Assembly (NCBI GenBank): GCA_965140585.1
Contig: OZ223267.1
Location: 352,001 to 416,000, forward strand
Reading direction: 5' to 3'
Length of the DNA stretch: 64,000 nt
Origin: Spirochaetia bacterium
GTDB lineage: Bacteria > Spirochaetota > Spirochaetia > UBA9216
The position numbers were made by a program, and so were the translations under genes. The notes under the pieces are model-generated. The model searched no databases and was not told the DNA's origin. It saw nothing but the letters and a program-made list of their open reading frames with translations. Shown piece after piece: positions 768-48,817 of this stretch (the stretch's first letter is position 1; the number at the start of each line of letters is the position of its first letter).

Positions 768-773
768 AAAAAA

Positions 774-27406: not shown

Positions 27407-27658
27407 ATGAAGAACAGGATCATTATATGCATGGGAAGCTCGTGTTATGCAAGAGGCAACAGGGATAATGTAAGTCTCATAAGGGAATACCTGGAAGCTA
27501 ATAATATCAGCGGAAGTGTTGAATTCAGCGGCAGCCTATGTGAGAACAACTGCAGCCGCGGTCCTGTAGTTACAATCAACGGAAAAACTTTTTTCGATGT
27601 GGATAGACCCCTTCTTCTTCAGATTCTGGATTCAGAGGTGATGAATGAACAGTCTTAA
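27407..27658 (+). CDS. hfsA: Thioredoxin-like [2Fe-2S] ferredoxin (HfsA-like)
   Basis: ICMGSSC...LCENNCSRGP. Confidence 0.8.
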   Translation: MKNRIIICMGSSCYARGNRDNVSLIREYLEANNISGSVEFSGSLCENNCSRGPVVTINGKTFFDVDRPLLLQILDSEVMNEQS

Positions 27659-29366
27659 AGCGATTTATCCGATTTATACTGAAAAAACCGAATGTCTCGA
27701 CTGCTATAAGTGTGTAAGGGAGTGCCCGGTAAAGGCTATAACTTTTATCAACGGTCATGCATCTGTTGACCAGGAGCTTTGCGTTTTCTGCGGCAGATGT
27801 GTTACCGTATGTCCTGCCGGAGCTAAGCGTGCCAGAAATGATCTGGGCCGGGTTAAAAGCCTGCTTTCTGAAAATCCCAATGTTATTCTGTCTATTGCAC
27901 CCTCATGGCGCGGAGAATTTCCAGGCGTAACAGAAGCTGATTTGATAGCTGCTGCAGAAACTGCAGGCTTTGCAGGAGTTTCTGAAACCGCTATAGGAGC
28001 TGAGGCAGTTTCAAAAACTATCGGTGAGCTGTTCAGCAGCAGCGGTGCAAAGCTTTTAATCTCCTCAGCATGTCCGAGTGTTGTTGAATATATTTGTAAA
28101 TATAAACCCGAGTTCCGGGAAAATATAACTCCGGTATTATCGCCTATGCTTACTCATTGCAGCATTATAAAACAGACCCAGGCCCCTGGTACGGAGATTG
28201 TTTTTGCAGGCCCTTGTCTGTCCAAGAAACGGGAGTCTGACGGACACAGTGAGCTGTGCCGGGCTGCAGTCAGTTTCCTTGATCTGCGTGATCTTCTTGG
28301 CGCTGATCTCCGGGGGGCAGCGGAAGCAGCTGCAGATAAAGATAAAACTCCTGTTCTTGGCAGAAGCGGAAAGGCTGCACTTTATCCGTATGAAGGCGGA
28401 ATGATCGAAAGCATTCAAAGCAGCAATCCTGTAAAAGATGACGAGATCATCTATATGAGTTTTTCCGGGCTTGATGAAATAGCTGAAGCTCTGGAAGGCC
28501 TCAATGAAATTGAAACTGACAGAAAGATTTTTCTGGAACTTCTTTCCTGCCGCGGCGGCTGTATTAATGGCCCCGGCTGCACAAGAAAGGGCTCGGTACT
28601 CAAGAAGCTTCAGGTTATAGAAAACAGCCGCAAGAAGGCCGAGAATGATTTCGTACCGGGAAAAATCGATGAAAGCTGGAGTTTTTCAATTAAGCAGCCG
28701 GAAAACCGGACAGATGAAGAAATAAAAAAAGCTCTTTCACTTGTAGGGAAATACGGGAAAGAAGATGAACTCAACTGCGGAGGCTGCGGTTACAACACCT
28801 GCCGCGAGTTTGCTGTTGCCTGTCTTGACGGGAAAGCCGAAACCGTTATGTGCGTTTCACATATGCGGAGACTTGCACAGAAAAAGGCGAACATCATCAT
28901 CGAAAAGATGCCCTCAGGCGTTGTAATCGTTGATGAGGCTCTTCGGATTCTTGAAAGCAACCGAAGGTTTGCTGAGATGATGGGTAAAGAAACCATGGTG
29001 ATGTGGGAAAGCCGCCCGATGCTTGAAGGTGCGATGGTCGATAGGATACTGCCTTTTTCCGGGCTATTTGAGACAGTTCTGAAACGCGGTGGAGAAATAC
29101 TGGATCGAAACATCCAGTTCAACAGCAAGGTTCTCAGTGTTACAGTATTTCCGATAATTGAGCACCAGACTGCCTGTGCAATAATCCAGGATGTGACGCT
29201 GCCATGGGTCAACCGCGACAGGGTTATCAGAAAGGCTGAGGAAGTAATAAGCCGCAATCTTGAAACAGTACAGCAGATTGCCTATCTCCTTGGGGAGAAC
29301 GCCGCAGAGAATGAAGTAATCATGAATTCCATCATTGAATCGTTCAGCGGGGAGAAAGATGCATAA
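27645..29366 (+). CDS. hydS: Sensory group C [FeFe]-hydrogenase with PAS domain (HfsB/HydS)
   Basis: 2x4Fe-4S N-terminus; SSACP, GPCLSKKRE, ELLSCRGGCING; NCGGCGYNTC; PAS; QQIAYLLGE tail. Confidence 0.9.
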   Translation: MNSLKAIYPIYTEKTECLDCYKCVRECPVKAITFINGHASVDQELCVFCGRCVTVCPAGAKRARNDLGRVKSLLSENPNVILSIAPSWRGEFPGVTEADLIAAAETAGFAGVSETAIGAEAVSKTIGELFSSSGAKLLISSACPSVVEYICKYKPEFRENITPVLSPMLTHCSIIKQTQAPGTEIVFAGPCLSKKRESDGHSELCRAAVSFLDLRDLLGADLRGAAEAAADKDKTPVLGRSGKAALYPYEGGMIESIQSSNPVKDDEIIYMSFSGLDEIAEALEGLNEIETDRKIFLELLSCRGGCINGPGCTRKGSVLKKLQVIENSRKKAENDFVPGKIDESWSFSIKQPENRTDEEIKKALSLVGKYGKEDELNCGGCGYNTCREFAVACLDGKAETVMCVSHMRRLAQKKANIIIEKMPSGVVIVDEALRILESNRRFAEMMGKETMVMWESRPMLEGAMVDRILPFSGLFETVLKRGGEILDRNIQFNSKVLSVTVFPIIEHQTACAIIQDVTLPWVNRDRVIRKAEEVISRNLETVQQIAYLLGENAAENEVIMNSIIESFSGEKDA

Positions 29367-30537
29367 CTGCTTTCTGGATATTGATTATGCACGAATAAAC
29401 AAGAAATCTCAGCGTGCAGGCGGAGATGTCTTTCTTTCAAGAAAGTCGGACACAGACGGAAGAGTCGTTTCAGTGCTTTCAGACGGTCTTGGAAGCGGCA
29501 TAAAGGCGAATGTTCTGGCAACCCTGACTACAACACTTGCTGCAGGATGTATAGCAGGCAGCCTTTCAATAGAGAGGACTGCAGAGGTAATTATGCGGAG
29601 TCTTCCTGAATGCAGCGAAAGAAAGATAAGTTATGCCACCTTCACCATTATTGATATTGAATATGACGGAAGTACAAGGATTATCGAATACGACAATCCG
29701 GGTTATCTGCTTTTACGGGACGGCAGACTTCTATCCCCCGAAAAGAAAACCATAACTGTCAACAGCCCGAACGGCAGAAACAATTTGTATTTTTCATTCA
29801 TAAAACTGCAGAGCGGCGATCGCATTGTTATGTACTCTGACGGAGTACCTCAGTCAGGAATAGGAAACAGGGAACTGCCGCTCGGGTGGGAAACTGAAAG
29901 AGCCAATGACTGGATTGTGAAAAAGATAGCCGACCAGCCTAATATCTCTTCAAGGGAACTGTCAAAGGCTGTTGTAAACAGGGCTGTTAGAAACGATATC
30001 TACATTCCACGTGATGATATTACCTGTGCTGTTATTTATGCCAGACAGCCGCGGAAACTCATGGTTGTCACCGGTCCTCCGCTGGACAGCTCAAGGGATA
30101 CTGAACTTGCCGGAATGGTTAAAAGTTTCCCTGGAAAGATGATTGTAAGCGGAGGAACCACCGCCAATATTATTTCAAGAGAACTCGGCCGCAAGGTTAG
30201 AACTGATCTCAGCAGACTTGATGGAGATCTTCCGCCAACAGCCCAAATGGATGGAATAGATCTTGTAACCGAGGGGATTTTCACTCTTGCGCGTACGGCA
30301 GAACTGCTTGAATCGGGTGAATACCGTTCAATGCGCCGGAAGAACGGCGCATCACAGATTATTGATCTGCTTCTGGACAGTGATGAGATCAACTTCGTTG
30401 TGGGAACACGGATCAATAATGCCCATCAGGATCCGAATGTTCCGGTAGGCCTTGAGATAAGGCGGAATATAGTAAACCGGATAGGAAAATGTCTTTCTGA
30501 CAAGTTACTTAAGGAAGTAAACATCTCTTATATATAG
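29359..30537 (+). CDS. hfsC: SpoIIE/PP2C-type Ser/Thr phosphatase (HfsC-like)
   Basis: VLSDGLGSGIKANVL, SYATFT, YSDGV, DDITC, GGTTANI. Confidence 0.88.
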   Translation: MHNCFLDIDYARINKKSQRAGGDVFLSRKSDTDGRVVSVLSDGLGSGIKANVLATLTTTLAAGCIAGSLSIERTAEVIMRSLPECSERKISYATFTIIDIEYDGSTRIIEYDNPGYLLLRDGRLLSPEKKTITVNSPNGRNNLYFSFIKLQSGDRIVMYSDGVPQSGIGNRELPLGWETERANDWIVKKIADQPNISSRELSKAVVNRAVRNDIYIPRDDITCAVIYARQPRKLMVVTGPPLDSSRDTELAGMVKSFPGKMIVSGGTTANIISRELGRKVRTDLSRLDGDLPPTAQMDGIDLVTEGIFTLARTAELLESGEYRSMRRKNGASQIIDLLLDSDEINFVVGTRINNAHQDPNVPVGLEIRRNIVNRIGKCLSDKLLKEVNISYI

Positions 30538-30560
30538 GAGATGAATAAAAGGGAGTTAAT

Positions 30561-31052
30561 ATGGCTGCAGAAAAAATGAAAAAGGTATGGGAGATCCTTG
30601 AGGCAAACGATTTCAACCAGGCAAGGCTTATACCCATCCTACAGGCTATTCAGGATGAATACCGTTATCTGCCCGAAGAAGTTCTGACATTCACCGCAAC
30701 CGCATTAGGCCTGTCGCCGGCCAAGGTTTTCGGTGTAGTAACTTTTTACAGTCACTTTTCGCTTGAGCCCAAAGGAAAATATGTGATTAAAGTATGTGAC
30801 GGAACAGCCTGCCACGTAAAGGGTTCGGGAAAGCTGATTGAAACCATCCGGAAGCATCTTGAGCTTGGTGAAAAGGATAGAAGCACAAGAGACCTTATGT
30901 TTACTCTTGAGACTGTTTCATGCCTCGGTGCATGCGGACTTGCCCCGGCTGTCGTTGTGAACGATAAGATATTCGGACAGGTTACCGAAGCCGGAGTCAG
31001 GGAAATTATCGATAACATCAAAGCATCGGAGGCTGTTCATGTCTGCAGTTAA
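30561..31052 (+). CDS. hydC: NuoE-like hydrogenase subunit HydC
   Basis: VCDGTACHVKG, CLGACGLAP. Confidence 0.9.
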   Translation: MAAEKMKKVWEILEANDFNQARLIPILQAIQDEYRYLPEEVLTFTATALGLSPAKVFGVVTFYSHFSLEPKGKYVIKVCDGTACHVKGSGKLIETIRKHLELGEKDRSTRDLMFTLETVSCLGACGLAPAVVVNDKIFGQVTEAGVREIIDNIKASEAVHVCS

Positions 31053-32934
31053 TCTTGATACTATTAAAGACCGTTATACACAGATGCGCAGTGAAGTTGA
31101 GCGCAGGATCATTGTCTGTGCCGGAACCGGCTGCCTTGCCAACGGTTCGGCTGATATTTTCAAATCATTTGAACAGAAGCAGCTTGAACGCGGACTGAAA
31201 GTGAGTGTTAAACTCAGGCCTGAAGACGATTCTCCGGATATTCTTGTTTCGGGAAGCGGTTGTCAGGGCTTCTGCCAGGTCGGTCCGCTGGTAACCATTC
31301 AGCCCGACGGTATCCTGTATGCACATGTTAAACCCGAAGATGTGGAAGATATCATTGAAAAAACAATTTTAAATGGTGAGGTAATTGAAAGACTACTGTA
31401 CACCGAACCTGCTTCAGGGAACAGCTGCAGGGGCACTTTAGAAATACCATTCTACGCAAAGCAGAGCAGACAGGTGCTTAAAAACTGCGGAAACTGTGAC
31501 CCTCTCGATCTGAATGAATATATTGCCGGAGACGGTTATGAAGCTGCCAGAAAGGCTTTCACTGCCATGAAGCCTGAAGATATCTGTGCTCTGATAAAAG
31601 AGGCCGGACTTAGAGGCAGGGGCGGCGGAGGTTTTTCTACAGGAAGAAAGTGGGAACTTGGCAACAGACAGCAGTCTGATAAAAAGTACATCATATGCAA
31701 CGGCGATGAGGGAGATCCGGGTGCCTTCATGGACCGGAGTATTCTTGAGGGAAATCCTCACTCTGTAGTCGAAGGTATGATGATAGCTGCTGCAGCCACT
31801 GGTTCGGATGAAGGCTACATCTACGTTAGAACTGAGTATCCCCTTGCTGTTGAACGAATCAGGAAGGCCATTACAGCTGCTGAGGATGCAGGAATTTTAG
31901 GAGATTCTATCTTCGGAACAGGCAGGAGTCTGAAGCTTCATGTAATGGAGGGCGCCGGAGCCTTTGTCTGCGGAGAGGCTAGCGCTATGGTTTCAAGTAT
32001 TATGGGAAATCGCGGCATGCCTAAACCCAAACCGCCCAGGACTGCCGAGAAAGGTCTGTGGGATATGCCTACAGTAGTAAATAATGTTGAAACTCTTGCT
32101 ACAGTGCCAATGATACTCCGTGTGGGTGTTGAAGCTTACAGGTCAAAGGGTACAGAGGGTTCACCGGGTACAAAGACTTTTGCTCTTACGGGGCACGTAG
32201 CAAATACCGGTTTAATTGAAGTTCCCTTCGGAACAACCCTGCGTCAGATCATCTTTGAAATTGGCGGCGGAGTAATCGATGAAAACGGCAAAATAGATAA
32301 CAGCGCTTTTAAGGCCGTTCAGATCGGCGGACCTTCAGGCGGATGCCTTATTGAAGAGCACCTCGATATTCCGCTGGATTTTGATTCGCTTGGAAAAGTA
32401 GGTGCCATGATAGGTTCCGGCGGACTGGTTGTAATGAACAAATCAACCTGTATGGTCCAGATTGCCCGCTTTTTCATGCAGTTCACCCAGCATGAGTCCT
32501 GCGGAAAATGTATTCCCTGCCGTGAAGGAACCAGGCAGATGCTTGAACTGCTTGATTCAATTATGGACGGCAGGGCTGATGAATCCACCCTCGATCTGCT
32601 TGAAGAACTGTGCATGACTGTCTCAAAAGCATCACTCTGCGGACTGGGGAAATCAGCACCTTCACCGGTACTTTCAACATTAAAACAGTTCCGTGAAGAA
32701 TATCTTGCACATGTTGTGGATAAACGGTGCCCGGCTGGACAGTGCAAGGCCTTAACACCGATTAGCATAGATCCAGATCTCTGCAGGGGCTGTACGCTCT
32801 GTGCCAGAAAGTGTCCGGTCGGTGCAATCAAAGGTGATAAGAAGGAAGCACACGTAATTGACGAAGAGCTCTGTATTAAATGCAGAGCCTGTATCGAAGC
32901 CTGTAAATTCAATGCAATAGGAGGTGCGGCATGA
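31039..32934 (+). CDS. hydB: NuoF-like FMN/NAD(P) subunit HydB
   Basis: N-terminal 2Fe-2S; GLRGRGGGGF, NGDEGDPGAFMDR, ESCGKCIPCREG; C-terminal 2x4Fe-4S. Confidence 0.92.
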   Translation: MSAVNLDTIKDRYTQMRSEVERRIIVCAGTGCLANGSADIFKSFEQKQLERGLKVSVKLRPEDDSPDILVSGSGCQGFCQVGPLVTIQPDGILYAHVKPEDVEDIIEKTILNGEVIERLLYTEPASGNSCRGTLEIPFYAKQSRQVLKNCGNCDPLDLNEYIAGDGYEAARKAFTAMKPEDICALIKEAGLRGRGGGGFSTGRKWELGNRQQSDKKYIICNGDEGDPGAFMDRSILEGNPHSVVEGMMIAAAATGSDEGYIYVRTEYPLAVERIRKAITAAEDAGILGDSIFGTGRSLKLHVMEGAGAFVCGEASAMVSSIMGNRGMPKPKPPRTAEKGLWDMPTVVNNVETLATVPMILRVGVEAYRSKGTEGSPGTKTFALTGHVANTGLIEVPFGTTLRQIIFEIGGGVIDENGKIDNSAFKAVQIGGPSGGCLIEEHLDIPLDFDSLGKVGAMIGSGGLVVMNKSTCMVQIARFFMQFTQHESCGKCIPCREGTRQMLELLDSIMDGRADESTLDLLEELCMTVSKASLCGLGKSAPSPVLSTLKQFREEYLAHVVDKRCPAGQCKALTPISIDPDLCRGCTLCARKCPVGAIKGDKKEAHVIDEELCIKCRACIEACKFNAIGGAA

Positions 32935-34868
32935 ATAACACTGAAACATACCTGACACTCAATAATGTGAAAGTTCCGATTGACGGGGAGCGCAATCTGC
33001 TGGAACTCATAAGAAAAGCGGGCATAGATCTTCCCACCTTCTGCTACCATTCAGAACTGAGTGTTTACGGAGCATGCCGGCTCTGTATTGTTGAAATAGA
33101 AGGCAAGGGAATTACCGCATCATGCGCAGAACCGCCCAGACCCGGTATGATTATAAAGACTTCGACCAAAAAACTACGTGATATGCGCAGGATGACGCTT
33201 GAGCTGCTGCTTGCAAACCACAAGTTTGACTGTCCTTCCTGTGAGAAGGCAGGAGACTGCAGACTCCTTGAAATATCAAACAAGCTCGGAGTCCGTAATA
33301 TCCGTTTCGGTAGAACCCGTCCATTTTCAGAGAAGGACTGTATGTCAGACAGCCTTATTCGTGATCCCGATAAGTGTATTCTCTGCGGCGACTGTGTACG
33401 CTACTGTGCCGAGATTCAGGGAATCGGAGCTATTGATTTTGCCTATCGCGGAGAAGAAGTAAAGGTTACACCGGCATTCAATAAAAGTCTTGCAAAGGTT
33501 GACTGTGTAAACTGCGGCGGATGTGCTGCAGTATGTCCCACCGGTGCAATTCTGGCACGCAATGAAATTGATGCAGTGCTTGAGAGTATTGATGATGAAA
33601 ATACTCTTACAGTTGTGCAGATTGCACCTGCTGTTCCTGCAGCTCTCGGAGAGGAGTTCGGACTTCAAGGCGAGGATGTCACCGGAAAAATTATTACAGC
33701 GCTCAGGATGATTGGGTTTGATCGAATTTACAGCACAGCCTTCGGAGCCGATATGACGGTTCTTGAAGAGTCCGCTGAATTCATAAAAAGAAAAGAGGAT
33801 GGAAGGAAGCTTCCGCTGTTTACCTCATGCTGTCCGGCCTGGGTTAAATACGCGGAACAGTTCTATCCGGAAATACTCGAAAATGTTTCAAGCTGCATGT
33901 CGCCTCAGGAGATGGTCGGCAGCCTTGCAGAGCGGATAATGACAGAGGATGGAAGCCTGGGGACTGGTAAAAAGCTTTCTGTAATCTCGGTGATGCCCTG
34001 CACAGCAAAAAAATATGAAAAGAACAGACCCGAGCTCTCAAGAGACGGCAGGCAGCTTGTTAATAATGTTATAACAACCAGGGAGCTTGCTGCTCTGATA
34101 AAGATGCATGGACTGCGTTTTGCCGAACTCAAACCATCCGCAATGGATCTCCCGATGGGATACAGTTCAGGAGCGGGAACAATATTCGGTAATTCCGGAG
34201 GAGTTGCTGAAGCAGTTCTCAGATATACAGGAGATCCTGATATCAAAGTATGTACTGTTCAGGGACTGAAGGCTGCCGGAGATATGGCTGAAAAAGTTAA
34301 AAAAGGTGAATGTGAATATGATCTGATTGAGGTAATGGCATGTCCCGGAGGCTGTATAGGCGGAGCAGGACAGCCGGTAGCTGAGGATCGGTCTGTTCTG
34401 AAAAAGAGAGCAGAGGTTCTAAGGGATACCGACAGAATTCAGCCGGTCCATACTTCCTGTCAGAATCCGTTTATAGATGGAATATATGAAAAGTTTCTCG
34501 GGGGTATGCCCGGATCCGGGGAATCGCATAAGTTTCTGCATACAGGCTACCAGAGCCGCCGCCGGATTGAAGCCTCCGGTTTCGATTTGATTAAGGCTTC
34601 ATCTGACGCTGAAGATACACTAAGTGTGAGTATCTGTGTGGGAACAAGCTGCTTTCTAAAAGGTTCGCAGAAGATCCTAGCTGATGTCCTTGAGGCGGCT
34701 GAAGCACCGGAACTGAAAGGTCGACTGAATGTTCAGGCATCATTTTGCAGTGAACATTGCGAAAAGGGGCCGAATGTACATGTTGGAGATACACTTCTCA
34801 CAGGGACTGATTCTGAAAAGATAATCAGTCTTATAAAAAAAGAATTGGGATTTGCCGCTAAAAACTAG
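32931..34868 (+). CDS. hydA: Group A3 [FeFe]-hydrogenase catalytic subunit HydA with C-terminal 2Fe-2S domain
   Basis: TSCCPAW, MPCTAKKYE, EVMACPGGCIGGAGQP; N-terminal F-clusters; CVGTSC tail. Confidence 0.93.
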   Translation: MNNTETYLTLNNVKVPIDGERNLLELIRKAGIDLPTFCYHSELSVYGACRLCIVEIEGKGITASCAEPPRPGMIIKTSTKKLRDMRRMTLELLLANHKFDCPSCEKAGDCRLLEISNKLGVRNIRFGRTRPFSEKDCMSDSLIRDPDKCILCGDCVRYCAEIQGIGAIDFAYRGEEVKVTPAFNKSLAKVDCVNCGGCAAVCPTGAILARNEIDAVLESIDDENTLTVVQIAPAVPAALGEEFGLQGEDVTGKIITALRMIGFDRIYSTAFGADMTVLEESAEFIKRKEDGRKLPLFTSCCPAWVKYAEQFYPEILENVSSCMSPQEMVGSLAERIMTEDGSLGTGKKLSVISVMPCTAKKYEKNRPELSRDGRQLVNNVITTRELAALIKMHGLRFAELKPSAMDLPMGYSSGAGTIFGNSGGVAEAVLRYTGDPDIKVCTVQGLKAAGDMAEKVKKGECEYDLIEVMACPGGCIGGAGQPVAEDRSVLKKRAEVLRDTDRIQPVHTSCQNPFIDGIYEKFLGGMPGSGESHKFLHTGYQSRRRIEASGFDLIKASSDAEDTLSVSICVGTSCFLKGSQKILADVLEAAEAPELKGRLNVQASFCSEHCEKGPNVHVGDTLLTGTDSEKIISLIKKELGFAAKN

Positions 34869-38968: not shown

Positions 38969-39193
38969 TATAATGAGAAAATACTATATATAAAAATCGT
39001 TTCATAAAAAATTCTGATTAAAAAGATAAGATAAATAATTATTTACATATTGATCTTTTACCATACAGGTTATATTGTATCAGGTGAAATAATTATATTA
39101 ATAACGATTTAATTTGATTATCTGATTAAATCTATTATAATTTAAACCAACTCAGATTAAATAAAGCTAACATATTCATATACAGGGGAAAAA

Positions 39194-41353
39194 ATGAGTA
39201 CTAAGAAAATTGTAATTCTTGGCGGCGGCTATGCAGGAATTGAAGCTGCAAAGATTTTGTGCAAAAGATACAGAAAGGATGAATCTGTTGATATTACCCT
39301 AATTGACAGGAATACCTACCATACCCTTATGACTGAGCTTCATGAGGTTGCAGGTTCAAGGGTTGAGCCGGATTCAGTACAGGTCAGTTACCAGAGAATC
39401 TTTTCAGGGACATGTCTTAATATTGTAAATGACTTTATAACCGGAATTGATTTCGAGAAAAGGATTATACAGTCGGAGCTTCATGAATATGCTTATGACT
39501 ATCTTGTTCTGGGAACAGGGGGTGCTCCGGAATTTTTTGACACTCCCGGTGTTCAGGAGAATTCATACTCTCTGTGGTCTCTTGAAGACGCAATGAGAAT
39601 CAGGGAACATTTTGAAGAACGCTTCAGACTTGCGGCAAAGGAACCAAATCCGAAGGTAAGAAACAGAATGCTTACCTTTGTAGTTGCAGGAGCCGGTTTT
39701 ACAGGAATTGAGCTGATTGGTGAGTTCCTTGAAAGACGGGATGTTCTGTGTGCTAAATATCATATAGATACTGATGATGTTAATATGATTGTTGTTGAGG
39801 CAATGGATACAGTTCTGCCGATTATAGAAGAAAACCTCAGAAAGAAATCTGTTAAATATCTCAACAAAAAAGGCTGTAAGGTTATACTGGGCGCCAGGAT
39901 TACCGGTGCTGCAGAAGGCAAGGTAATGCTTGCAGACGGTTCTGAAATTGAAACCGACACACTTGTATGGACCTGTGGTATTCACGGTTCAGAGTTCACT
40001 TCAAGGATTAACCTCACCAAGGGACATACTTCACGCGGTCAGTGCAGTTTTGCATCGGCTGACGGTATTCACGGAATGCTCGGATGCCGTTTTGATGAGA
40101 ATGAACGTTATGTTGTAGGTCAGAGAGGAAGAATACTTGTTGATGACTATATGAGGTCTGTAGATCACAACGAAGTTTATGCAGTCGGCGACAATATGTG
40201 GTTTCTTGAAAATGAAAAAGTTCTGCCTCAGATTGTAGAAACTGCTATTCAGACCGGTGAGGTTGCCGCAAAGAATATTATTGCTGATATCGACAGTACT
40301 GAAAAACACAAATTCAAATCAAATTATCATGGTTTTATGGTTTCAATAGGCGGACGTTATGCAGTGTCCAATGCCGGAGGCATGAAAGTTTCCGGTTTCA
40401 TGGCAATGGCAATGAAGCATGTTGTAAACCTCCATTACCTATTCGGCATAGCCGGAATAAATGCTGTATGGGGCTACCTGAAGCACGAGTTCTTCGATAT
40501 GAAAGACAGAAGAACATTCGTCGGCGAACATCTTTCCTGGAAACTTCAGGGTTGGTGGGGTGTACCGCTTAGAATGTGGCTTGGTGTTATGTGGATTGCA
40601 GAAAGCCTTAATAAAATTGGCGAGGGCTGGCTTAATTTTGCTTCAGGCACAAAGTCCGGCTGGATGTTCAGTCCTGGAGTTGTCCAGAAAGGCGTAGAAG
40701 TTGCCAGTGATGCTGTAAGTGCTGCATCAGAGGGCGGAGAGGCCGCTGAGGGCTGGGTTGAAACTGCTGCTCCTGCTGTTGCAGATACAGTGAGCGCCGC
40801 CAGTGATGCTGCAGGTGATGCCGCTCAGACTGTTGTTCAGGCTGCCGCTGATACAATAAGTGCAGCAAGTGATGCAGTAGCAGGTGCTGCCGGTGATGCT
40901 GCAAATGCTGTTGCTGATACCGCAGCTCAGGTTTTTGGAAAGATCTGGGAAACCGGTAATCCGATAATCCCGTACAACTCAGGATTTGTAACCTGGTTCA
41001 GGGAAACCTTCATGGACAGTATTATGGCATATATCAGCTATCCGATATTCCAGACTATGATTGTTCTTGTTGAGCTTTTCATCGGTCTTGCGCTTCTCGG
41101 TGGACTTTTTACCTGGCTTGCTGCCGCTGCATCAATTGTAATGTGTCTTGTTTTCACATTCTCGGGAATGTTCTCATGGGATCAGGCCTGGTTTGTATTT
41201 GCCGGATTCCTTATGCTTGCCGGAGCAGGACGTGCTGTAGGTTTTGACCACTGGGTTATGCCTGCAATCAAGAAATGGTGGAACAGTACAGCTTTTGCAA
41301 GACGTACTCATCTTTTTGTCGGTGAACCTGTTCTTAAGAGAAAAAAGAAATAG
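39194..41353 (+). CDS. Type II NADH dehydrogenase fused to DoxX/DoxD-like membrane domain (Listeria Ndh2-like)
   Basis: ILGGGYAG, VAGAGFTGIELIGE, YAVGD, PQIVE, YHGFMVSIG; C-terminal PLRMWLG..W and ELFIGLALLGGLFT...GAGRAVGFD TM helices. Confidence 0.88.
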   Translation: MSTKKIVILGGGYAGIEAAKILCKRYRKDESVDITLIDRNTYHTLMTELHEVAGSRVEPDSVQVSYQRIFSGTCLNIVNDFITGIDFEKRIIQSELHEYAYDYLVLGTGGAPEFFDTPGVQENSYSLWSLEDAMRIREHFEERFRLAAKEPNPKVRNRMLTFVVAGAGFTGIELIGEFLERRDVLCAKYHIDTDDVNMIVVEAMDTVLPIIEENLRKKSVKYLNKKGCKVILGARITGAAEGKVMLADGSEIETDTLVWTCGIHGSEFTSRINLTKGHTSRGQCSFASADGIHGMLGCRFDENERYVVGQRGRILVDDYMRSVDHNEVYAVGDNMWFLENEKVLPQIVETAIQTGEVAAKNIIADIDSTEKHKFKSNYHGFMVSIGGRYAVSNAGGMKVSGFMAMAMKHVVNLHYLFGIAGINAVWGYLKHEFFDMKDRRTFVGEHLSWKLQGWWGVPLRMWLGVMWIAESLNKIGEGWLNFASGTKSGWMFSPGVVQKGVEVASDAVSAASEGGEAAEGWVETAAPAVADTVSAASDAAGDAAQTVVQAAADTISAASDAVAGAAGDAANAVADTAAQVFGKIWETGNPIIPYNSGFVTWFRETFMDSIMAYISYPIFQTMIVLVELFIGLALLGGLFTWLAAAASIVMCLVFTFSGMFSWDQAWFVFAGFLMLAGAGRAVGFDHWVMPAIKKWWNSTAFARRTHLFVGEPVLKRKKK

Positions 41354-41371
41354 GATACCACAGAGAGATTT

Positions 41372-42346
41372 ATGACTTATATTTCTGACTCCATAGGGGA
41401 CAGTCAGCTTTCAGAAGACCTCCGGTCAGTAAGGGCGGTGATTAATGGTTATATTCAGAATACACCTGAAATGATCCGCTCTGCTGTTGAAAGGCTTCTG
41501 GCAGACGGCGGGAAGATGCTTCGACCCGCCATGGTTGTACTGGCCGGACGGTATGGGGATTTTGACGGAAACAGAATTTATTCACTTGCTGCCGCAGTTG
41601 AGATGCTGCATAATGCAACTCTTGTTCATGACGACATCATAGATGAAGCTGAAACACGACGGGGCAAACCTGCCATGCATACGATTCATGGCAGCAAGCT
41701 GGCCATCCTGCTGGGTGATTACATGTTTTCAGGATGTTTTGTTATGGCATCCAGAAACTCAAGGATCGATCAGTACGATAAACTTGCCAAGGCTGTGGCC
41801 AGAGTCTGTGAGGGAGAAATCCTGCAGGACACTGAAAAATTTATCTTTAATCCCAGTATTAGAAAATATAAAAGGCGGATTGCAAGTAAAACCGCAGTCC
41901 TGTTCTCACTTAGTCTTTATCTGGGAGCAAAGGAAGCCGGATGTCCCGAGGCTGACTGCAATATTTTTGTTCGAATAGGCTACAATATCGGTATGGCTTT
42001 TCAGATTATCGATGATATTCTTGATTTTAACGGAAAGACTGATAAGGTCGGCAAACCTGTGACAGGGCATGATATGCAGGAGGGTATTTTTACTCTTCCG
42101 GCAATTATTGCAATGCAGTCCGATAACGGAGAGCTTGCTCAGCTTTTCAATGAACCGCCTTACAGCCCCGAATCAATAGCTCAGGCTTTAACCCTTATCA
42201 ATAAATCAGGCGCAATTGAAAAAGCCAAGGCTGTTGCAGAACTGTATTCCCAGCGTGCCCGCCGTGAAATTGCTCGATTGGAACCGGGATATACATCTCA
42301 GCAGCTTGAAAAAATTACCGGGCAGCTTCTTTCCCGAAATTTCTAA
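41372..42346 (+). CDS. Long-chain polyprenyl diphosphate synthase (HepT/DmkB-like)
   Basis: GGKMLRP, ATLVHDDIID..RRG, KTA, FQIIDDILD. Confidence 0.92.
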   Translation: MTYISDSIGDSQLSEDLRSVRAVINGYIQNTPEMIRSAVERLLADGGKMLRPAMVVLAGRYGDFDGNRIYSLAAAVEMLHNATLVHDDIIDEAETRRGKPAMHTIHGSKLAILLGDYMFSGCFVMASRNSRIDQYDKLAKAVARVCEGEILQDTEKFIFNPSIRKYKRRIASKTAVLFSLSLYLGAKEAGCPEADCNIFVRIGYNIGMAFQIIDDILDFNGKTDKVGKPVTGHDMQEGIFTLPAIIAMQSDNGELAQLFNEPPYSPESIAQALTLINKSGAIEKAKAVAELYSQRARREIARLEPGYTSQQLEKITGQLLSRNF

Positions 42347-42349
42347 TCT

Positions 42350-43246
42350 TTATAAAAAATCGGGAATACCTTCAAGGTATTCCTTTATTTCATCCTCAAT
42401 AAAATCAGGAGTCGATGCTGAAGATACGATGAGAGCCTTGTTTATGTCTGTAAGGTTAATATTTCTGCTTTTGAGATCTTCAAGATTCTGTATAAAGTAT
42501 GTATGCTTATCAGCCTCGTAAAGCAGGTGGAAAAGCTTGCTTGCATTGGATGAGAGTTTGTCTCCTATAACAAAACTTATATCTGCCTGTTTTTGAAGCT
42601 CCAGGGCTTCCTCTTCCTTTTTTCGTGTTACCGGGCAAATACTGTCAAAGACAGTAACGTTCGTTTCAGGCCAGTGCTCTTTTACTGCGCTGCAGGTGGA
42701 ATCAAACAGAACACGGCTCCCTGTAGTCTGAGAGGTAATAAAAAAACTTTCCGGGTGAATGTCTACACTACGGCTTCTGCTAAACTCCGGATTTTTTATA
42801 AAATCTTCAAGATCCTCTGAAGTTTCGATGACAGTAAAGTTCTCTGCATAACTCTGAAGCCCAAGGACTTCAGGATGGGTTTTCTTGCCTGTTATGATAA
42901 CAGAAGAACCGCCGGCTGATGCTTCGGCTATTTTTTTCTGAACTTTTTTAACATTTACACAGGTCAGATCTATAAGATGGTGAGTCTCTGAAAGTTCCTT
43001 TTCAAGTGTCCTGTCGATCCCGTGTGTTCTAACTGCAATTACAGCCTTATCGGGGATATCTTCAGGTTTATCCATTGTTTTAATTCCTTTTGTATTAAGA
43101 AATTCAACATGGCTTCGATTGTTAATCATCATACCCAGAACGCATAGATCCTGTGATTCAAGTTCATCTTTTGTTTTAAGGATGTTCTTCTCAGCATTTT
43201 TTACACCGGGGCAGAACCCGGACAGCTTCGGTATAAGTACGGTCAT
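42350..43246 (-). CDS. ispH: 4-hydroxy-3-methylbut-2-enyl diphosphate reductase
   Basis: GFCPGV, RTHG, DLTC, HPEV, SQTT, DSIC, SSNA, SASTP; start reset to ATG 43246. Confidence 0.9.
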   Translation of the reverse strand: MTVLIPKLSGFCPGVKNAEKNILKTKDELESQDLCVLGMMINNRSHVEFLNTKGIKTMDKPEDIPDKAVIAVRTHGIDRTLEKELSETHHLIDLTCVNVKKVQKKIAEASAGGSSVIITGKKTHPEVLGLQSYAENFTVIETSEDLEDFIKNPEFSRSRSVDIHPESFFITSQTTGSRVLFDSTCSAVKEHWPETNVTVFDSICPVTRKKEEEALELQKQADISFVIGDKLSSNASKLFHLLYEADKHTYFIQNLEDLKSRNINLTDINKALIVSSASTPDFIEDEIKEYLEGIPDFL

Positions 43247-43321: not shown

Positions 43322-44032
43322 TTGAAGGGGAACAGGACTATCGCAAAACTTCTTTTTATTCAGCCTCAATCCATAAAGAAGAATCCTGATTTTCAGCTGC
43401 TGGTCAAGATACTCAATGATTCTGCAAAACTTCGAAAAGTTATACTTCCGCCCAAGGCCTGGAAACTGGTGAATGAGCCGCGGCTTGAAATCAAGTACCT
43501 CGATAATTTTATCAGGACGTATTATCTTCCGGAAAAAGGGTTTTTTAAGCTTTTTTTAGAACTAAAATGGAATTATCAATCTCAGCGGAATAAAAAATAC
43601 CTACACAGGCAGCAGAGAATAAGTAAATCCGCAGATGCATGGCCTGAAAGTATAAAAAGACTTGTTTTTAAGCTGCTAAACGCGGAAAGAAAATGTAATG
43701 ATGATATACCTGTGTATAAAAGAGTTCTTTATCCGGCAAGCCTGAAACGTGCAGGAGAACTATCCGGATTCTCAGCCGAAGAGTGGGCTGAAATTATTTT
43801 GAAATATTATGACAGCCTTAAAACTCATTACCGAACCATTAAACTGCCTGATAGAGCAGCCTTAATGACCTTTCTGCAGGACCTCGAGTCAGTTAAACGA
43901 AATGCTGCTCAACAAAATAATGCCGGACATAGAAGAGAATACCGGAAACTTCTTAAAAAATATCATCCTGATCTTGGCGGTGATGCGAATATATTTATAG
44001 CCGTTAAAAGGCGATACGATGAATTAAAATAG
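43322..44032 (+). CDS. Protein with short C-terminal J-domain-like motif
   Basis: YRKLLKKYHPDLGGD; SD GGAGG before the TTG start. Confidence 0.7.
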   Translation: MKGNRTIAKLLFIQPQSIKKNPDFQLLVKILNDSAKLRKVILPPKAWKLVNEPRLEIKYLDNFIRTYYLPEKGFFKLFLELKWNYQSQRNKKYLHRQQRISKSADAWPESIKRLVFKLLNAERKCNDDIPVYKRVLYPASLKRAGELSGFSAEEWAEIILKYYDSLKTHYRTIKLPDRAALMTFLQDLESVKRNAAQQNNAGHRREYRKLLKKYHPDLGGDANIFIAVKRRYDELK

Positions 44033-44401: not shown

Positions 44402-46297
44402 TTATGTTTTAAATAATTCAGCATCTTTATTTATATTTCCAACACGCTCTTCATTGTCTTTTATAAGCATCTCTTCTTCCGAGACCGCCTTATTTATCTC
44501 GTTAACACCCATTGTGATTTCATCAATGGCATGGCTTGTTGTTTTGCTGAAATCCTGGAGGTGAGTAACAGATTCTATGATCTGTTTATTGCCAATCTTC
44601 ATCTCTTGTGACCCTGAGTTGACTTCAGCTGAAATTTCCTCCATGTGGTTGAGGCCTTCAGGAACATGATTACTTCCGATGCTTAATTCCTGCACGGCGT
44701 TCTGAATATTGCTGAATATATTGCTGACCTTAATAACAGCTGTATTCATAGCATCGAAATCTTTTGTATTTTGCGAAGCTGATACGGTAAGTTCATCTAT
44801 TGCCTTTTTGATACTTGTCAAATTTGAACTTACAACCTTGAATTGGCTGTCAGACTGTTCTGCAAGTTTTCTTATCTCCTCTGCTACCACAGAGAATACC
44901 TTTCCTGCATCACCGGCATGAGCAGCTTTAATCACAGCATTCATTGAAAGTAAATTTGTCTGACTGGACAGATTTGATATTAATTCATTTGCCTGCATTA
45001 GTTCATTGGACTCTTCAACAATCTTATGAATTACGTCCTGAACCATTTCCATGGTTTCCTGGCCCTTGGAGGACGCATGTGTCATTTGCTTAACCTTTTC
45101 ATTTCAGGTTTCTATGACCCCGGCAATGGAGTCTATTCCTGCAGTCATTTCTTCAATAGCAGACGAGGACTGGGTAATACTTGAGCTCTGCTCAATAATA
45201 CTGTTGTTAAGATTATTGATATTATCAGTAAGCTGAGCAACAGAGTGAACTGTCTGACTTGTAACTGATGTCTGTTCATGCATCTGTTTATTGATGCTTT
45301 GCAGATTACTGCTGATCTGGTTGATAGATGCTGCAGTTTCGGTAATATTAAGGCTCATTTCTTCACTTGATTTATTGATGTCACTTATCTGGGTTTTGAG
45401 TTTCCCCAGGAAAACTGAAAAGTTTTCAAACATTGTATTCATGCTACGGTAAATGGAATCTAACTCATCTTTTCCCTTGGGCTTCACTCTGAGTCGTATA
45501 TCTCCTGTTGAAGCAGTGAGCAGATGTTTTTCCAGTTCTGATACTCTTTTCGTAATGATATTCCTAATCATAATTAAAAGAAGAATAATCAGGATAACCA
45601 TACTTGATGTACTTATAATTGATATTATCATCTGAAGATACTGTGATGTATCCAGAAGATCGCTCTCGGAAATATTGGCAGCAATAAACCATCCGCTTTC
45701 ACCTGACTGATGAAAAGCCGGATATCGGATAATTCCGTTTATCTGGTATCCGAAAAAACCTCTTTCTTTCTTCTTATTCAGGATTGTTATTATTGGTCCC
45801 GGCTTGCCGGAGTGATCAACTAACAGCTCATTTCTATCACCATAGGCCAGTACAATACCCTTTGATGTAAACATATACGGCTGTCCCATCTTGCCTAAAT
45901 CTCTTTCCCATAAAACATGGGTGAGCAATTTTGTAAAATTCAACCTAATAATATAATATCCCAGCGTTTCCCCATTTTGTATTAAGGGTTTTCCAACTGT
46001 CGAAATAATATTACCTTTTTTAGAAGAAAGTGAGAAGGTTTCATCGAGCTCGGAAGTACCAGAATTGGAAGACAGAGTCTTAAATATTTTTTCTTCACAT
46101 AAATCTTTTCCAATTGCAGCATTTGCAGTACTGGTTACTACGAGACCTTTGGTATCAATCAGAAGCATCTCATTACAAAATTCATGTGTTTTCTTTTCTT
46201 CATCTATATATTTTTTAACAGAGATAAAATCCTGATTAATGGTGTAGCTGTAAAGTATATAACAAGTTATCTGAGAGCTTAAGGATATGAATTCCAT
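44402..46297 (-). pseudogene. Methyl-accepting chemotaxis protein (Cache-HAMP-MA), disrupted
   Basis: The two ORFs are in one frame, separated by TGA 45104-45106; [31 protein letters not shown]; N-terminus eroded. Confidence 0.85.
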
Positions 46298-46455: not shown

Positions 46456-47559
46456 ATGATAGATACAGGCACCAGATTAGGCATACTCATCAGTTTTTTT
46501 ATTGCCTCAGGCGGTATGTATTTTGTTCTTTACTCGATTATACAGCTTATTTCTATCAGAAAAAGAAAGCAGATTCACTATCTACACTTTGGATTTTTCT
46601 TTCTTCTCGGCCTATGTATACTCCTGGATTCTTATTATAGAAAAGGTACCGAGTATTTTGCACCTGGCCTGCTTTTAATAAATTTTCCTTTGGATTTTTT
46701 ATTGGGTCCGATATTGATTTTCTATTTTAACAGCTTTTTTGATACTCATTTCAGGTTGAAAAAACTACATCTGTTAACCGTTCTTCCTGCGTTTATATGT
46801 TTAGCCGCTTTTATTCCTTATTATATTCTTCCCTCTGAACAAAAGCTTGCAATGTTTCCACTGGAAACGCTGTCATCGGGTTGTTTTATGATAATTGGAA
46901 AGGTCTTTAACTATACAATGTTCCCCTGGACAGCTGTATGTTTGATAGTTATATTCAAATCCAATCTGAAATATTTTGAAAAGAGTAAAAAGCATATACG
47001 GCTGACGCTGATATTTTTAATAACAGTAATACTTTTAGCAGCTTTTATGAGTTACAGTGATACTCTGAACGATTTAAAACCATATAAGGTCGGTATGACT
47101 GTTCTTGTTTTCTCTTTAATATGTTTTTCACTTATGACATCAAGGTTCACTGATTTCTTTTTGAGAATCCGAAATGAGGCCAGTGCTGTCCGTTATGCAC
47201 AGTCCAAGGTTTCATCACTTAATGTAGATTTTATAGTTTTCCGGATCGAAGATCTTATGGAATTTGAGCATCTTTACACAGATCCTGAATTGAATCTTAG
47301 AAGCCTGAGTGCCAGGCTGGAGCTGCGGCCTGGACAGCTTTCCGAAATTATCAATTCCAGATATTCAAAGAATTTTAACAGCTATATAAATGATTTAAGA
47401 ATAGAGTCTGCCAAGTCAAAAATCAGGTATGAGAAGGAGCATAGCATCCTTTCTGTCGCAATGTCCTGCGGGTTCAATTCAAAATCTAATTTCAATCGTG
47501 TTTTCAGCGAGAAGGTCGGTATGTCTCCCTCTGAATACCGGAAGACTATTAATAATTGA
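46456..47559 (+). CDS. Membrane-anchored AraC-family regulator
   Basis: Multiple TM helices, then LSEIIN..NFNSYINDLRI..GFNSKSNFNRVF..GMSPSEYR. Confidence 0.9.
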   Translation: MIDTGTRLGILISFFIASGGMYFVLYSIIQLISIRKRKQIHYLHFGFFFLLGLCILLDSYYRKGTEYFAPGLLLINFPLDFLLGPILIFYFNSFFDTHFRLKKLHLLTVLPAFICLAAFIPYYILPSEQKLAMFPLETLSSGCFMIIGKVFNYTMFPWTAVCLIVIFKSNLKYFEKSKKHIRLTLIFLITVILLAAFMSYSDTLNDLKPYKVGMTVLVFSLICFSLMTSRFTDFFLRIRNEASAVRYAQSKVSSLNVDFIVFRIEDLMEFEHLYTDPELNLRSLSARLELRPGQLSEIINSRYSKNFNSYINDLRIESAKSKIRYEKEHSILSVAMSCGFNSKSNFNRVFSEKVGMSPSEYRKTINN

Positions 47560-47686: not shown

Positions 47687-48817
47687 ATGGACAGTAATTT
47701 ACTTGTAGATACAGGCCTTATTCTTGGTATTTGTCTTTGCCTTATCATAACTGTCAGTCAGCTTCTTTTAAAAAGAAAGGATCAGAAGAATTATCTCATT
47801 GCACTGAATACCTTTCTTATTGCCGTATACCAGTTCTCAAGTGCATTTTACCTGTTTTCAGGTATAGAGAACTGGTATGCTGTTTATCCCTATGTATACA
47901 CTTTAGGGAGGTTTGTTTTATTTACAGCGGCACCTGTATACTACTTTTTTTTCAAATCACTTCCTCAAAAAGAATATATTTTCCACCCATCGCATCTCCT
48001 GCACATGATAATCCCGGTTGCAGTCACTTTAATTCTAATTATATTTGCTGAATATCCTGTTTATCCGGTTGTGAGTTTTCGAGATTATAAGGATTTTCTG
48101 TATGCAAATGTTGGAATCTTCAGGCCTCTCAGTGTATTTTCTTCATTTTACGGAATTGTTTATTTCTTTATAATACTTGTTTATTATATCCACCTTTTTC
48201 GAAGATCAAAGGAGGAGCGGCAGAAAAACCTTTCTACCGTAATAATATTTTCTCTGATTACAATTGCACCGCTTTTCCCTTATATCGTATTCGGGAACAG
48301 GGTGGTATGGTATTACCATCTTTTCCAGCTGCGTTTTACAATACTGTCTGTATATCTTTTGCTGATAAGCCAGCGTTACCCATTTCTTCTCAATATAATA
48401 AAGCTGGAAGCCTACCGTGATTATTATCTTAAATCCAATATTGAAGATGCTGAGGCTGACAGGGTTTATTCAGCTCTTGAGCAGCTGATGAATGAAGAAA
48501 AACTATTTGTTAATAATGACCTGTTTCTCAAAAATGCAGCACAAAAGCTTAAAGTGTCGAACTTACAGTTATCTGAGGTTTTAAATATCCATCAGGGTAA
48601 GACATTTTCCCAGTATATTAAAGAAAAAAGAATAAACTATTCGCTGGAACTTCTAGAGAACAAAACATCAATGACAGTACTTGATATTGCCCTTGAGTGC
48701 GGATTTAACTCCAAATCCAGTTATTATGCAGCTTTTCAAAAGATGATAGGCGAAACTCCTCTTCAGTATCGAAAAAAAAGGTCCAGATATATATCTGGAC
48801 GATCATTGAACAGATAA
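47687..48817 (+). CDS. Membrane-anchored AraC-family regulator (second copy)
   Basis: Multiple TM helices, then LSEVLN..IALECGFNSKSSYYAAF..GETPLQYR. Confidence 0.9.
   Translation: MDSNLLVDTGLILGICLCLIITVSQLLLKRKDQKNYLIALNTFLIAVYQFSSAFYLFSGIENWYAVYPYVYTLGRFVLFTAAPVYYFFFKSLPQKEYIFHPSHLLHMIIPVAVTLILIIFAEYPVYPVVSFRDYKDFLYANVGIFRPLSVFSSFYGIVYFFIILVYYIHLFRRSKEERQKNLSTVIIFSLITIAPLFPYIVFGNRVVWYYHLFQLRFTILSVYLLLISQRYPFLLNIIKLEAYRDYYLKSNIEDAEADRVYSALEQLMNEEKLFVNNDLFLKNAAQKLKVSNLQLSEVLNIHQGKTFSQYIKEKRINYSLELLENKTSMTVLDIALECGFNSKSSYYAAFQKMIGETPLQYRKKRSRYISGRSLNR
48781..48804 (+). promoter_or_regulatory. Palindromic operator, copy 1
   Basis: Perfect 20-bp palindrome GTCCAGATATATATCTGGAC followed by GATC. 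Confidence 0.7.

Follow-up and report, generated by a model that had tools for sequence, protein, structure and literature searches.

The ndh2-dmkB locus

We analyzed a 64,000-nucleotide stretch of the genome of a Spirochaetia bacterium (contig OZ223267.1, positions 352,001 to 416,000 of the forward strand; hereafter the window, numbered from its first letter), concentrating on a gene that encodes a predicted type II NADH:quinone oxidoreductase (NDH-2) fused to a membrane domain, and on the polyprenyl diphosphate synthase gene that follows it. Judged from their sequences, the two genes are a spirochaete ndh2-dmkB operon of the Ndh2 family known from flavin-based extracellular electron transfer (EET), which has been studied in Listeria, Enterococcus, and lactic acid bacteria. 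The predicted outer loop of the membrane domain carries repeated heptads that resemble the sites to which ApbE/FmnB-type transferases attach flavin mononucleotide (FMN). The two genes and the main parts of the first are listed here; TM denotes transmembrane, and pLDDT the predicted local distance difference test score of an AlphaFold2 model.

39194..41353, plus strand: ndh2-like gene for a 719-residue NDH-2 fused to a DoxX-like four-helix membrane domain (open reading frame [ORF], Pfam, and Listeria alignment)
39194..40483, plus strand: cytoplasmic NDH-2 catalytic part, residues 1-430, with GGGYAG and GAGFTG motifs and amphipathic C-terminal helices
40004..40120, plus strand: insertion of about 40 residues (271-309) with Cys284 and Cys298, seen as gaps in solved NDH-2 and Listeria Ndh2
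40550..40621, plus strand: TM helix 1 (TM1) of the C-terminal domain, residues 453-476 (AlphaFold2 helix, pLDDT >90)
41039..41218, plus strand: TM helices 2-4, residues 616-675, the region matched by Pfam DoxX (Pfam, AlphaFold2)
41219..41353, plus strand: basic C-terminal tail with 10 Lys+Arg in 44 residues, predicted cytoplasmic (positive-inside rule)
41372..42346, plus strand: DmkB-like polyprenyl diphosphate synthase gene, starting 18 nucleotides past the ndh2 stop (PF00348, E 1.6e-62)

Family membership of the catalytic part was indicated by Pfam matches to Pyr_redox_2 (residues 5-267, E 1.3e-33) and Pyr_redox (residues 162-240), and by both dinucleotide-binding GxGxxG motifs, GGGYAG at residues 10-15 and GAGFTG at 166-171. 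In a 34-sequence alignment G10, G11, Y13, G15, G166, G168, F169, T170, and G171 are invariant, as are Q346 and Q353 of the quinone-site Q-x-x-x-x-x-x-Q region and R460, L463, G464, and W467 of TM1. The top solved relative is the NDH-2 of PDB entry 4NWZ (E 5.3e-66), which aligns with residues 1-270 and 310-425; a normal NDH-2 thus has no counterpart to the sequence beyond residue 430. Taken together, the sequence comparisons place the protein in the NDH-2 family, as a predicted member, while NCBIfam holds no specific model for it, all matches falling far under their cut-offs.

The additional C-terminal part matches DoxX (PF07681) at residues 615-657 (E 4.9e-6; 27.5 bits, above the gathering cut-off of 23.6), though of the 85 profile positions the match takes in only 40-82. 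Modelled with AlphaFold2 from 30 aligned sequences (mean pLDDT 76.7), residues 438-719 show four membrane helices at residues 453-476, 616-636, 640-656, and 662-675, each with pLDDT >90, and a Foldseek search of the PDB with this model returned no resembling solved structure (best E 4.6).

Separately, C284 in the insertion at residues 271-309 is nearly invariant in the 34-sequence alignment, and this insertion may be a clade-specific redox or metal site within the catalytic domain.

The protein is 37% identical to Listeria monocytogenes Ndh2 over residues 1-696 of 719 (BLASTP, E 4e-142), and the DmkB-like synthase is likewise 37% identical to the polyprenyl synthetase of the Listeria EET locus (E 5e-71). 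A tblastn search of PLSDB with the C-terminal domain matched nine records, two of them from L. monocytogenes; Enterococcus was also matched. One Listeria record encodes, in order, fmnA, an FAD:protein FMN transferase, pplA, a 628-residue FAD-dependent oxidoreductase, eetA, eetB, and a polyprenyl synthetase, and the oxidoreductase is the Ndh2 of the published EET locus. An Enterococcus gilvus record has the same gene order, with two menA genes. Because both the full-length protein and the synthase match the Listeria system, we regard the window genes as a spirochaete EET-type ndh2 with its dmkB. Thus the Pfam matches and the full-length alignment bear out the NDH-2/DoxX fusion proposed in an earlier reading made from the DNA sequence alone (the sequence-only reading), and the parallel to Listeria Ndh2 and DmkB that it had drawn extends to both proteins.

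The PLSDB records NZ_LR134400.1, NZ_CP030101.1, and NZ_CP154629.1 (0.59 to 2.9 Mb) look like chromosomes, or pieces of them, mislabelled as plasmids; a stretch of NZ_LR134400.1 contains ribosomal protein genes together with the chromosomal EET locus.

Heptads in the predicted outer loop

Between TM1 and TM2 lies a long acidic loop with the following features.

40622..41038, plus strand: predicted extracytoplasmic TM1-TM2 loop, residues 477-615, with 17 Asp+Glu against 4 Lys+Arg
40676..40939, plus strand: acidic Ala-rich insert, residues 495-582, AlphaFold2 pLDDT 40-60, of variable length in relatives
40709..40729, plus strand: motif copy 1, DAVSAAS, residue 506
40784..40804, plus strand: motif copy 2, DTVSAAS, residue 531
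40850..40870, plus strand: motif copy 3, DTISAAS, residue 553
40871..40891, plus strand: degenerate copy DAVAGAA, residue 560, both Ser lost

Lys and Arg number 5 in the 28 residues before TM1, 4 in the 139 residues of the loop, and 10 in the 44-residue tail. The positive-inside rule and the modelled helices together put the loop outside the cytoplasm as a prediction, since NADH forces the NDH-2 part to be cytoplasmic and one confident helix precedes the loop. This is the topology that flavinylation of the loop, as the sequence-only reading envisaged it, would call for.

All four heptads lie exactly where that reading had placed them. Residues 495-579 (85 amino acids) comprise 31 Ala, 8 Asp, 5 Glu, and 1 Lys. 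The codons differ from copy to copy (gat gct gta agt gct gca tca for DAVSAAS, gat aca gtg agc gcc gcc agt for DTVSAAS, and gat aca ata agt gca gca agt for DTISAAS), and Tandem Repeats Finder detected no DNA repeat across the heptads, its only array being one of 9 nucleotides at 40728-40753 (score 31); the earlier claim of conservation at the protein level is upheld by both results. DAVAGAA has no Ser or Thr at the acceptor position and therefore cannot be a flavinylation site.

The Bacteroidetes-type O-glycosylation motif, D-[ST]-[AILVMT], was considered as the conserved feature. It fits the DTV and DTI of two window copies, yet most homologues have D-A-V, and it was rejected.

Distribution and conservation of the loop motif

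A word-indexed homologue search yielded 4360 proteins at E <= 1e-3 among 7998 scored, and the named entries in the best 120 of these 4360 were all Spirochaetales, Treponema, Marispirochaeta, or Salinispira. A scan of GTDB genomes gave 80 loci, including the window's own (L001); seven are from Clostridium or Clostridia and most others are titled spirochaetes. A profile of the C-terminal domain matched just 593 clusters at E <= 1e-3 (174 at E <= 1e-10) among 1.84 billion representatives, and the domain is thus a small family; it is joined to NDH-2 in the full-length profile hits, and many homologues have a precomputed PF07681 match.

We aligned 119 close homologues with the 80 locus proteins and excised the TM1-TM2 loops, of which 156 were unique. 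The relaxed heptad [DE]xx[STA][AGS]A[ST] is present in 151 of these and occurs 401 times in total, against 15.6 +/- 3.7 (maximum 26) in 200 composition-preserving shuffles; for the strict form Dxx[ST][AG]A[ST] the corresponding counts are 204 and 2.5 (maximum 8 in the shuffles). When the loops are anchored on [AGS]A[ST], Asp stands at position -6 in 49% of cases (background 6%), Ala at -5 in 73% (background 28%), Val, Ala, or Thr at -4, and Ser at -3 in 42%. Copy number ranges from 1 to 6 or more among close homologues, the spacers are unconserved, and the insert varies in length from 0 to about 170 residues. Of 37 full-length representatives that the profile search gave, 28 contain the relaxed heptad; two of the nine without it are nearly loop-less.

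A second search, seeded with a representative carrying DATTGAS, reached Clostridia including Cellulosilyticaceae, Defluviitalea, Epulopiscium, Ruminiclostridium, and Thermotalea metallivorans, in which the loop is short and the heptad is single in 116 of 120 sequences. Its columns (118 aligned) are D in 115, T or S in 112, S in 90 or G in 24, A in 117, and S in 114 or T in 4, and the flanking columns vary. In a confident model of one short-loop homologue (P0170, pLDDT 88.5) the heptad sits on a hairpin, at its flexible tip, where residues 464-467 score below 50, a predicted placement that fits an exposed modification site.

At the homologous place of the loop, Listeria Ndh2 (...LQTAATSGASQAAG...) has the canonical SGAS within TAATSGASQ, and E. 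gilvus Ndh2 (...LQEQVTTGASAAG...) the canonical TGAS within QVTTGASA, both without the Asp. Comparison of homologous loops for SGAS and SGAT variants and for copy number, which the sequence-only reading had proposed as a check, thus finds the motif conserved across phyla, with the canonical Gly in Listeria, Enterococcus, and 24 of 118 Clostridia. On this comparative evidence we take the motif for an ancestral feature of the whole EET-Ndh2 family. Clostridia and Bacilli have it as a single copy; in spirochaetes it has been amplified to 1-6 copies, and Ala has taken the place of Gly.

Gene context in relatives

Neighboring ORFs of at least 80 amino acids from the 80 loci were clustered and the clusters named with Pfam; ORFs overlapped by longer ones were dropped, many contigs are short, and many loci are too incomplete to judge, so that the counts below should be read accordingly. 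The polyprenyl synthase gene lies directly downstream of ndh2 in 54 of the 80 loci (median gap 46 nucleotides). ApbE (PF02424, E 5.7e-91) is encoded in 21: in 13 of these its gene is the immediate and mostly divergent neighbor of ndh2, in 6 it lies at a distance of one gene, and in 2 the distance is about 6 kb. Most of these 21 proteins have, judged by eye, a lipoprotein-like N-terminus in which a hydrophobic stretch is followed by Cys. We further infer that at least seven ApbE proteins share a contig with an Ndh2 homologue, as in Marispirochaeta aestuarii. For 15 of the 21 apbE loci, Ndh2 is the only motif-bearing protein near apbE, since no further ORF within 7 kb shows PplA likeness or the D..[ST]GA[ST] pattern.

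Other EET genes recur as well: NusG_II (EetA-like) in 11 of the 80 loci, UbiA in 8 (plus L053), and PF07456 (EetB-like) in 6, plus a fused form in a cluster of three loci. By these counts the ndh2-dmkB core has a wide distribution among Spirochaetota, and apbE, eetA/B, ubiA, or pplA-like genes often accompany it. A cluster of PplA-like lipoproteins with D..[ST]GAT repeats occurs in nine loci that have a motif-bearing ndh2, and its L062 member matches PF04205 (E 6.9e-10).

Three sets of neighbors were noted in passing. (i) PplA-like lipoproteins with two FMN_bind-like repeats adjoin ndh2 or apbE in spirochaetes and Clostridium (L011:8929-9780, L012:8930-9781, L021:12799-13710, L062:8951-9769, and others); in L011 and L012 the repeat motif is D-[TS]-I-S-G-V-[ST], with Val for Ala at -1. 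(ii) A family of about 240 residues with no Pfam match, encoded directly upstream of ndh2 (L063:9099-9824, L073:9080-9805, and L079:9086-9805), bears D-x-x-[ST]-G-A-S close to the N-terminus and is a candidate for a further flavinylation substrate. (iii) In Sediminispirochaeta (L007:13127-18390 and L009:8414-13477) four genes between dmkB and apbE encode an amine-oxidase-like flavoprotein, a fumarate-reductase-type protein (FAD_binding_2 and Succ_DH_flav_C), a 4Fe-4S protein, and a CCG-domain protein; the set may form a reductase module tied to the EET system.

Proposed function of the locus

Our best explanation, to which we would assign a probability of roughly one half, is that ndh2 and dmkB form an operon of two genes that belongs, in this uncultured bacterium, to a FLEET-like system (flavin-based extracellular or extracytosolic electron transfer) and that the loop heptads are modified by ApbE. 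The cytoplasmic NDH-2 part would oxidize NADH and reduce a dedicated (demethyl)menaquinone pool, and the DoxX-like domain would handle the quinol, with the 139-residue TM1-TM2 loop on the periplasmic side. There, the three D-x-x-S-A-A-S heptads would be targets of a periplasmic ApbE/FmnB-type FMN transferase, with FMN placed on the last Ser of each, and the Ser-linked FMNs would take electrons from the quinol site to periplasmic acceptors, for which PplA-like flavolipoproteins, free flavins, and flavinylated reductases are candidates. Spirochaetota are diderm and mostly fermentative; in a diderm host the acceptor would more likely be periplasmic than a mineral outside the cell.

Work on other proteins makes such a site conceivable. 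The minimal ApbE motif is a transplantable tag of seven residues, D-x-x-[S/T]-G-A-[S/T] (PMC12052999, from the portions available). The same portions report that Gly to Ala lowers flavinylation of the Klebsiella fumarate reductase to about 50%, that Asp to Ala has minor effects, that Thr to Ser costs 10-55%, and that Ser is accepted as the acceptor. According to passages of PMC11334425, flavinylation was shown for FMN_red proteins whose unstructured C-terminal extension bears one or two sequences like the motif. It follows from these two sets of results that an unstructured, Gly-less flavinylation site is conceivable.

Other observations weigh against it. Copies 1-3 of the window fail a match to D-x-x-[S/T]-G-A-[S/T], as they read D-x-x-S-A-A-S, and position -2 of the spirochaete-dominated loops is Ala in 83%, Ser in 11%, and Gly in 6%. 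Pfam detected neither FMN_bind (PF04205) nor another flavin-binding fold around the motif of the window protein; the insert is low in complexity and poorly modelled (AlphaFold2 pLDDT 40-60). Thirteen of the 119 close homologues (576-591 residues) are without the insert and keep all four helices, and the loop is thus dispensable for the core enzyme. A Pfam scan of 55 window ORFs (those of at least 110 amino acids outside the region of interest) found no apbE, UbiA/MenA-type, eetA, eetB, or FMN_bind gene, and the loci of the closest named relatives have no apbE within 10 kb. In a search with the ApbE of locus L007, proteins of the window's source contig were not among the best 120 of 5139 matches, which neither shows nor excludes an apbE. 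Six of the 21 apbE loci have, within 7 kb, a further ORF with PplA likeness or the canonical motif, and there the PplA-like protein could be the transferase's only substrate. Term look-ups in PMC8238504 (without its supplements), PMC11334425, PMC9973259, PMC9888254, PMC12051747, PMC8837199, PMC8906456, and bioRxiv 10.1101/2023.01.13.524026 were included in the literature search, to whose scope the primary Listeria EET papers did not belong; it found no experiment on S-A-A-S or S-S-A-S sites and no report of a flavinylated Ndh2 or of an Ndh2 flavinylation motif. The sequence-only reading had itself cautioned that the motif is SAAS rather than SGAS and that the window has no apbE or dmkA, and rightly so. 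Its proposal that the loop is multiply FMNylated therefore stands in part: it is favored by the conservation of the motif and by apbE as a recurrent neighbor, and disfavored by the lack of the canonical Gly from every window copy that could be modified. That at least one site in the window protein is flavinylated is, on the comparative evidence, close to an even proposition, if slightly short of one.

The strongest competing account accepts an EET-type Ndh2 and leaves its loop unflavinylated, the heptad being a docking element (for EetA, PplA, ApbE, or a periplasmic reductase) or a site of another Ser/Thr modification, and the acidic Ala-rich stretches flexible spacers. The low complexity, poor modelling, and variable length of the insert, replacement of the ApbE-defining Gly in most members, the lack of a flavin-binding fold in the window protein, the loop-less relatives, and the PplA-like proteins with canonical motifs, which in some loci would suffice as ApbE substrates, all suit this account. 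Against it stand the exact agreement of the conserved positions with the ApbE heptad (D at -6, S/T at -3, A at -1, S/T at 0), the canonical Gly of the same loop in Listeria, Enterococcus, and a fifth of the aligned Clostridia, and the 13 loci in which apbE directly adjoins ndh2, with 15 apbE loci offering no other candidate substrate; we consider it rather unlikely. Were the heptads instead a functionless low-complexity expansion in a tolerant periplasmic loop, their likeness to the ApbE motif would arise from Ala/Ser/Asp-rich composition, and the extreme composition of the insert, the free variation of copy number between close relatives, and a fourth window copy already without both Ser would be expected. 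The shuffled loops, which yield a small fraction of the observed heptads, and the nearly invariant heptad in short, non-repetitive Clostridia loops with variable flanks bring this idea close to refutation, and the copies are kept at the protein rather than the DNA level; we give it very little credence.

A different objection concerns EET itself: the protein could be an ordinary respiratory NDH-2 with an extra membrane domain as a mere anchor, the synthase and ispH serving general isoprenoid and quinone metabolism with no extracytosolic transfer. No specific NCBIfam model names the protein, the window holds no acceptor module, apbE, or pplA, and ispH is a housekeeping gene. Solved respiratory NDH-2s, however, end at about 400 residues without a C-terminal membrane domain, the window pair agrees with the Listeria EET locus in its full-length architecture and in the synthase that follows, relatives have apbE, eetA, eetB, ubiA, and pplA-like genes around the ndh2-dmkB pair, and ispH is not a conserved neighbor, all of which makes this account improbable.

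Returning to the ApbE-modified loop, one element of the sequence-only reading found no support. It had suggested that the loop merges the roles of Ndh2 and PplA in one polypeptide, yet Listeria and Enterococcus Ndh2 carry the motif too, and PplA is encoded in their loci; nor does the loop seem to stand in for PplA, as PplA-like lipoproteins accompany a motif-bearing ndh2 in nine loci. What spirochaetes have multiplied is thus a feature of the whole family rather than a substitute for PplA.

The wider significance would lie in EET generally. The FAD exporter EetB feeds the flavin transferase. Iron reduction by Enterococcus faecalis requires EetB and not PplA, and passages of PMC9864754 describe its route from reduced demethylmenaquinone to ferric ion as unknown; in Lactiplantibacillus plantarum, riboflavin-dependent iron reduction needs Ndh2 and EetA/B and not PplA, DmkA, or DmkB (PMC9888254, in the parts seen). 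A flavinylated Ndh2 loop would fit both results, a reading that is ours and not that of those papers. PMC8238504 defines the EET system by an NADH dehydrogenase that is anchored in the membrane and encoded within a flavinylation gene cluster; the relevant passages do not name this dehydrogenase as a flavinylation substrate. As a tentative extension, about which we have more doubt than confidence, every EET-type Ndh2, including Listeria Ndh2 and Enterococcus Ndh3, may be an ApbE/FmnB substrate whose loop FMN would link the dedicated quinol pool to extracytosolic acceptors; in spirochaetes the multiplied site would then make the loop a flexible tether with 3-6 FMN groups, along which electrons could pass across the periplasm. 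Electron exit from the quinone pool is described as unsolved in the portion seen of PMC9864754, and the ApbE-like site in the outer loop of Ndh2 is a concrete candidate for it. The tryptic peptide bearing the motif is 84 residues long in the window protein, 60 in Listeria, and 63 in E. gilvus, and with peptides of 60-84 residues standard trypsin proteomics could, we infer, have missed flavinylation. The Gly-to-Ala and Gly-to-Ser variants, if modified, would widen the recognized ApbE motif. The loop motif, multiplied with Ala for Gly in spirochaetes, is probably unreported, and no paper discussing an ndh2-dmkB EET system in Spirochaetota was found in the literature searched.

Other features of the operon and the window

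Three further features flank the operon.

39114..39141, plus strand: promoter-like site TTGATT-16-TATAAT, 53 nucleotides upstream of the ndh2 start (10 of 12 consensus matches)
42362..42384, no strand assigned: hairpin with T-runs on both strands, between the convergent dmkB-like and ispH genes
42350..43246, minus strand: ispH (LytB), last step of the methylerythritol phosphate (MEP) isoprenoid pathway, convergent with the operon (PF02401, E 3.9e-60)

The promoter-like site is weak evidence, being a consensus match only in a region that has 11 such sites against 9.5 expected. The hairpin is likely a bidirectional terminator. The ispH gene, with its ATG at 43246, scores 182.6 bits against TIGR00216, under the cut-off of 187.85; as in the sequence-only reading, a polyprenyl synthase (PF00348) comes next after ndh2 and ispH (PF02401) is convergent. 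Membership of ispH in the module was ruled out, as it is not a recurrent neighbor in related loci. Near the operon Rfam detected neither a riboswitch nor any other RNA, its only matches in the window being a lysine riboswitch and a 6S RNA.

The lysine riboswitch (5552-5725, minus strand) lies upstream of an aspartokinase-like gene (4149-5486), and the 6S RNA (769-944, minus strand) overlaps the called 5' end of a PilZN3-PilZ ORF (3-854), whose start was probably mis-called. Positions 27645-34868 (plus strand) encode a sensory-type [FeFe]-hydrogenase-like protein (Fe_hyd_lg_C, Fer4, and PF04060), a SpoIIE-type phosphatase, NuoE-like and NuoF-like proteins, and a HydA-type hydrogenase; the cluster resembles an NADH-linked hydrogenase, possibly a bifurcating one, together with its regulator, consistent with a fermentative host. 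A 236-residue ORF at 43322-44032 (plus strand), whose start overlaps the longest ispH ORF, has a weak J-domain fragment near KKYHPDLGGD (PF00226, E 0.003, below the cut-off) and no other family match. At 44402-46297 (minus strand) a chemoreceptor is split into two ORFs 18 nucleotides apart, a sensor/HAMP part (45104-46297) and a methyl-accepting chemotaxis protein (MCP) signalling part (44402-45085), which could reflect an interrupted gene or a sequencing error. Two adjacent paralogous regulators at 46456-47559 and 47687-48817 (plus strand) each have a multi-helix membrane N-terminus and an AraC-type helix-turn-helix at the C-terminus.

Comparison with known systems

DoxX/DoxD membrane proteins (PF07681 and PF04173) include a subunit of the archaeal thiosulfate:quinone oxidoreductase. 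The C-terminal domain of the window protein shares with them four helices, of which Pfam DoxX covers helices 2-3, and some Clostridia homologues carry PF04173; it differs in being fused to NDH-2, in the long insert after helix 1, and in matching only 43 of 85 profile positions. The NDH-2 of Caldalkalibacillus thermarum (4NWZ) resembles the catalytic domain, with both dinucleotide motifs and the amphipathic C-terminal helices, whereas it and other respiratory NDH-2s are monotopic proteins of about 400 residues with neither a transmembrane domain nor an outer loop.

With the known ApbE/FmnB substrates (the FMN_bind domains of NqrC, RnfG, and PplA; DUF2271; DUF3570; FMN_red; and Flavodoxin_4) the window protein shares D at -6, S/T at -3, A at -1, and the S/T acceptor at 0, a predicted extracytosolic location, and, as in multi-flavinylated proteins, several copies per chain. 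The FMN_red C-terminal extensions are similar in that, in the portion of PMC11334425 available, the motif lies in an unstructured segment. Unlike these substrates, the window protein has Ala for Gly at -2 and no detected FMN-binding fold, and an NDH-2/DoxX fusion is not among the carrier classes named in those parts of the searched literature that were available.

The closest counterparts are Listeria Ndh2 and its Enterococcus counterpart (Ndh3 in E. faecalis), which have the same architecture of NDH-2 with a C-terminal four-helix membrane domain; in Listeria a DmkB polyprenyl synthase likewise lies downstream. A Ser/Thr-x-Ala-Ser motif occupies the homologous outer loop of both. The loops in Listeria and Enterococcus are shorter, with one canonical SGAS or TGAS, whereas that of the window protein is about 139 residues long with three Ala-for-Gly copies; the E. 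gilvus loop has additional Ala- and Gly-variant heptads, EATTAAT and GAAGGAT. The window protein also has the extra 40-residue, Cys-containing insertion in its catalytic domain relative to Listeria Ndh2. Its host is a diderm spirochaete in which, unlike in Listeria, eetA, eetB, fmnA, fmnB, dmkA, and pplA do not adjoin ndh2, none of eetA, eetB, fmnA, fmnB/apbE, dmkA (UbiA), and pplA being linked to it within the 64-kb window.

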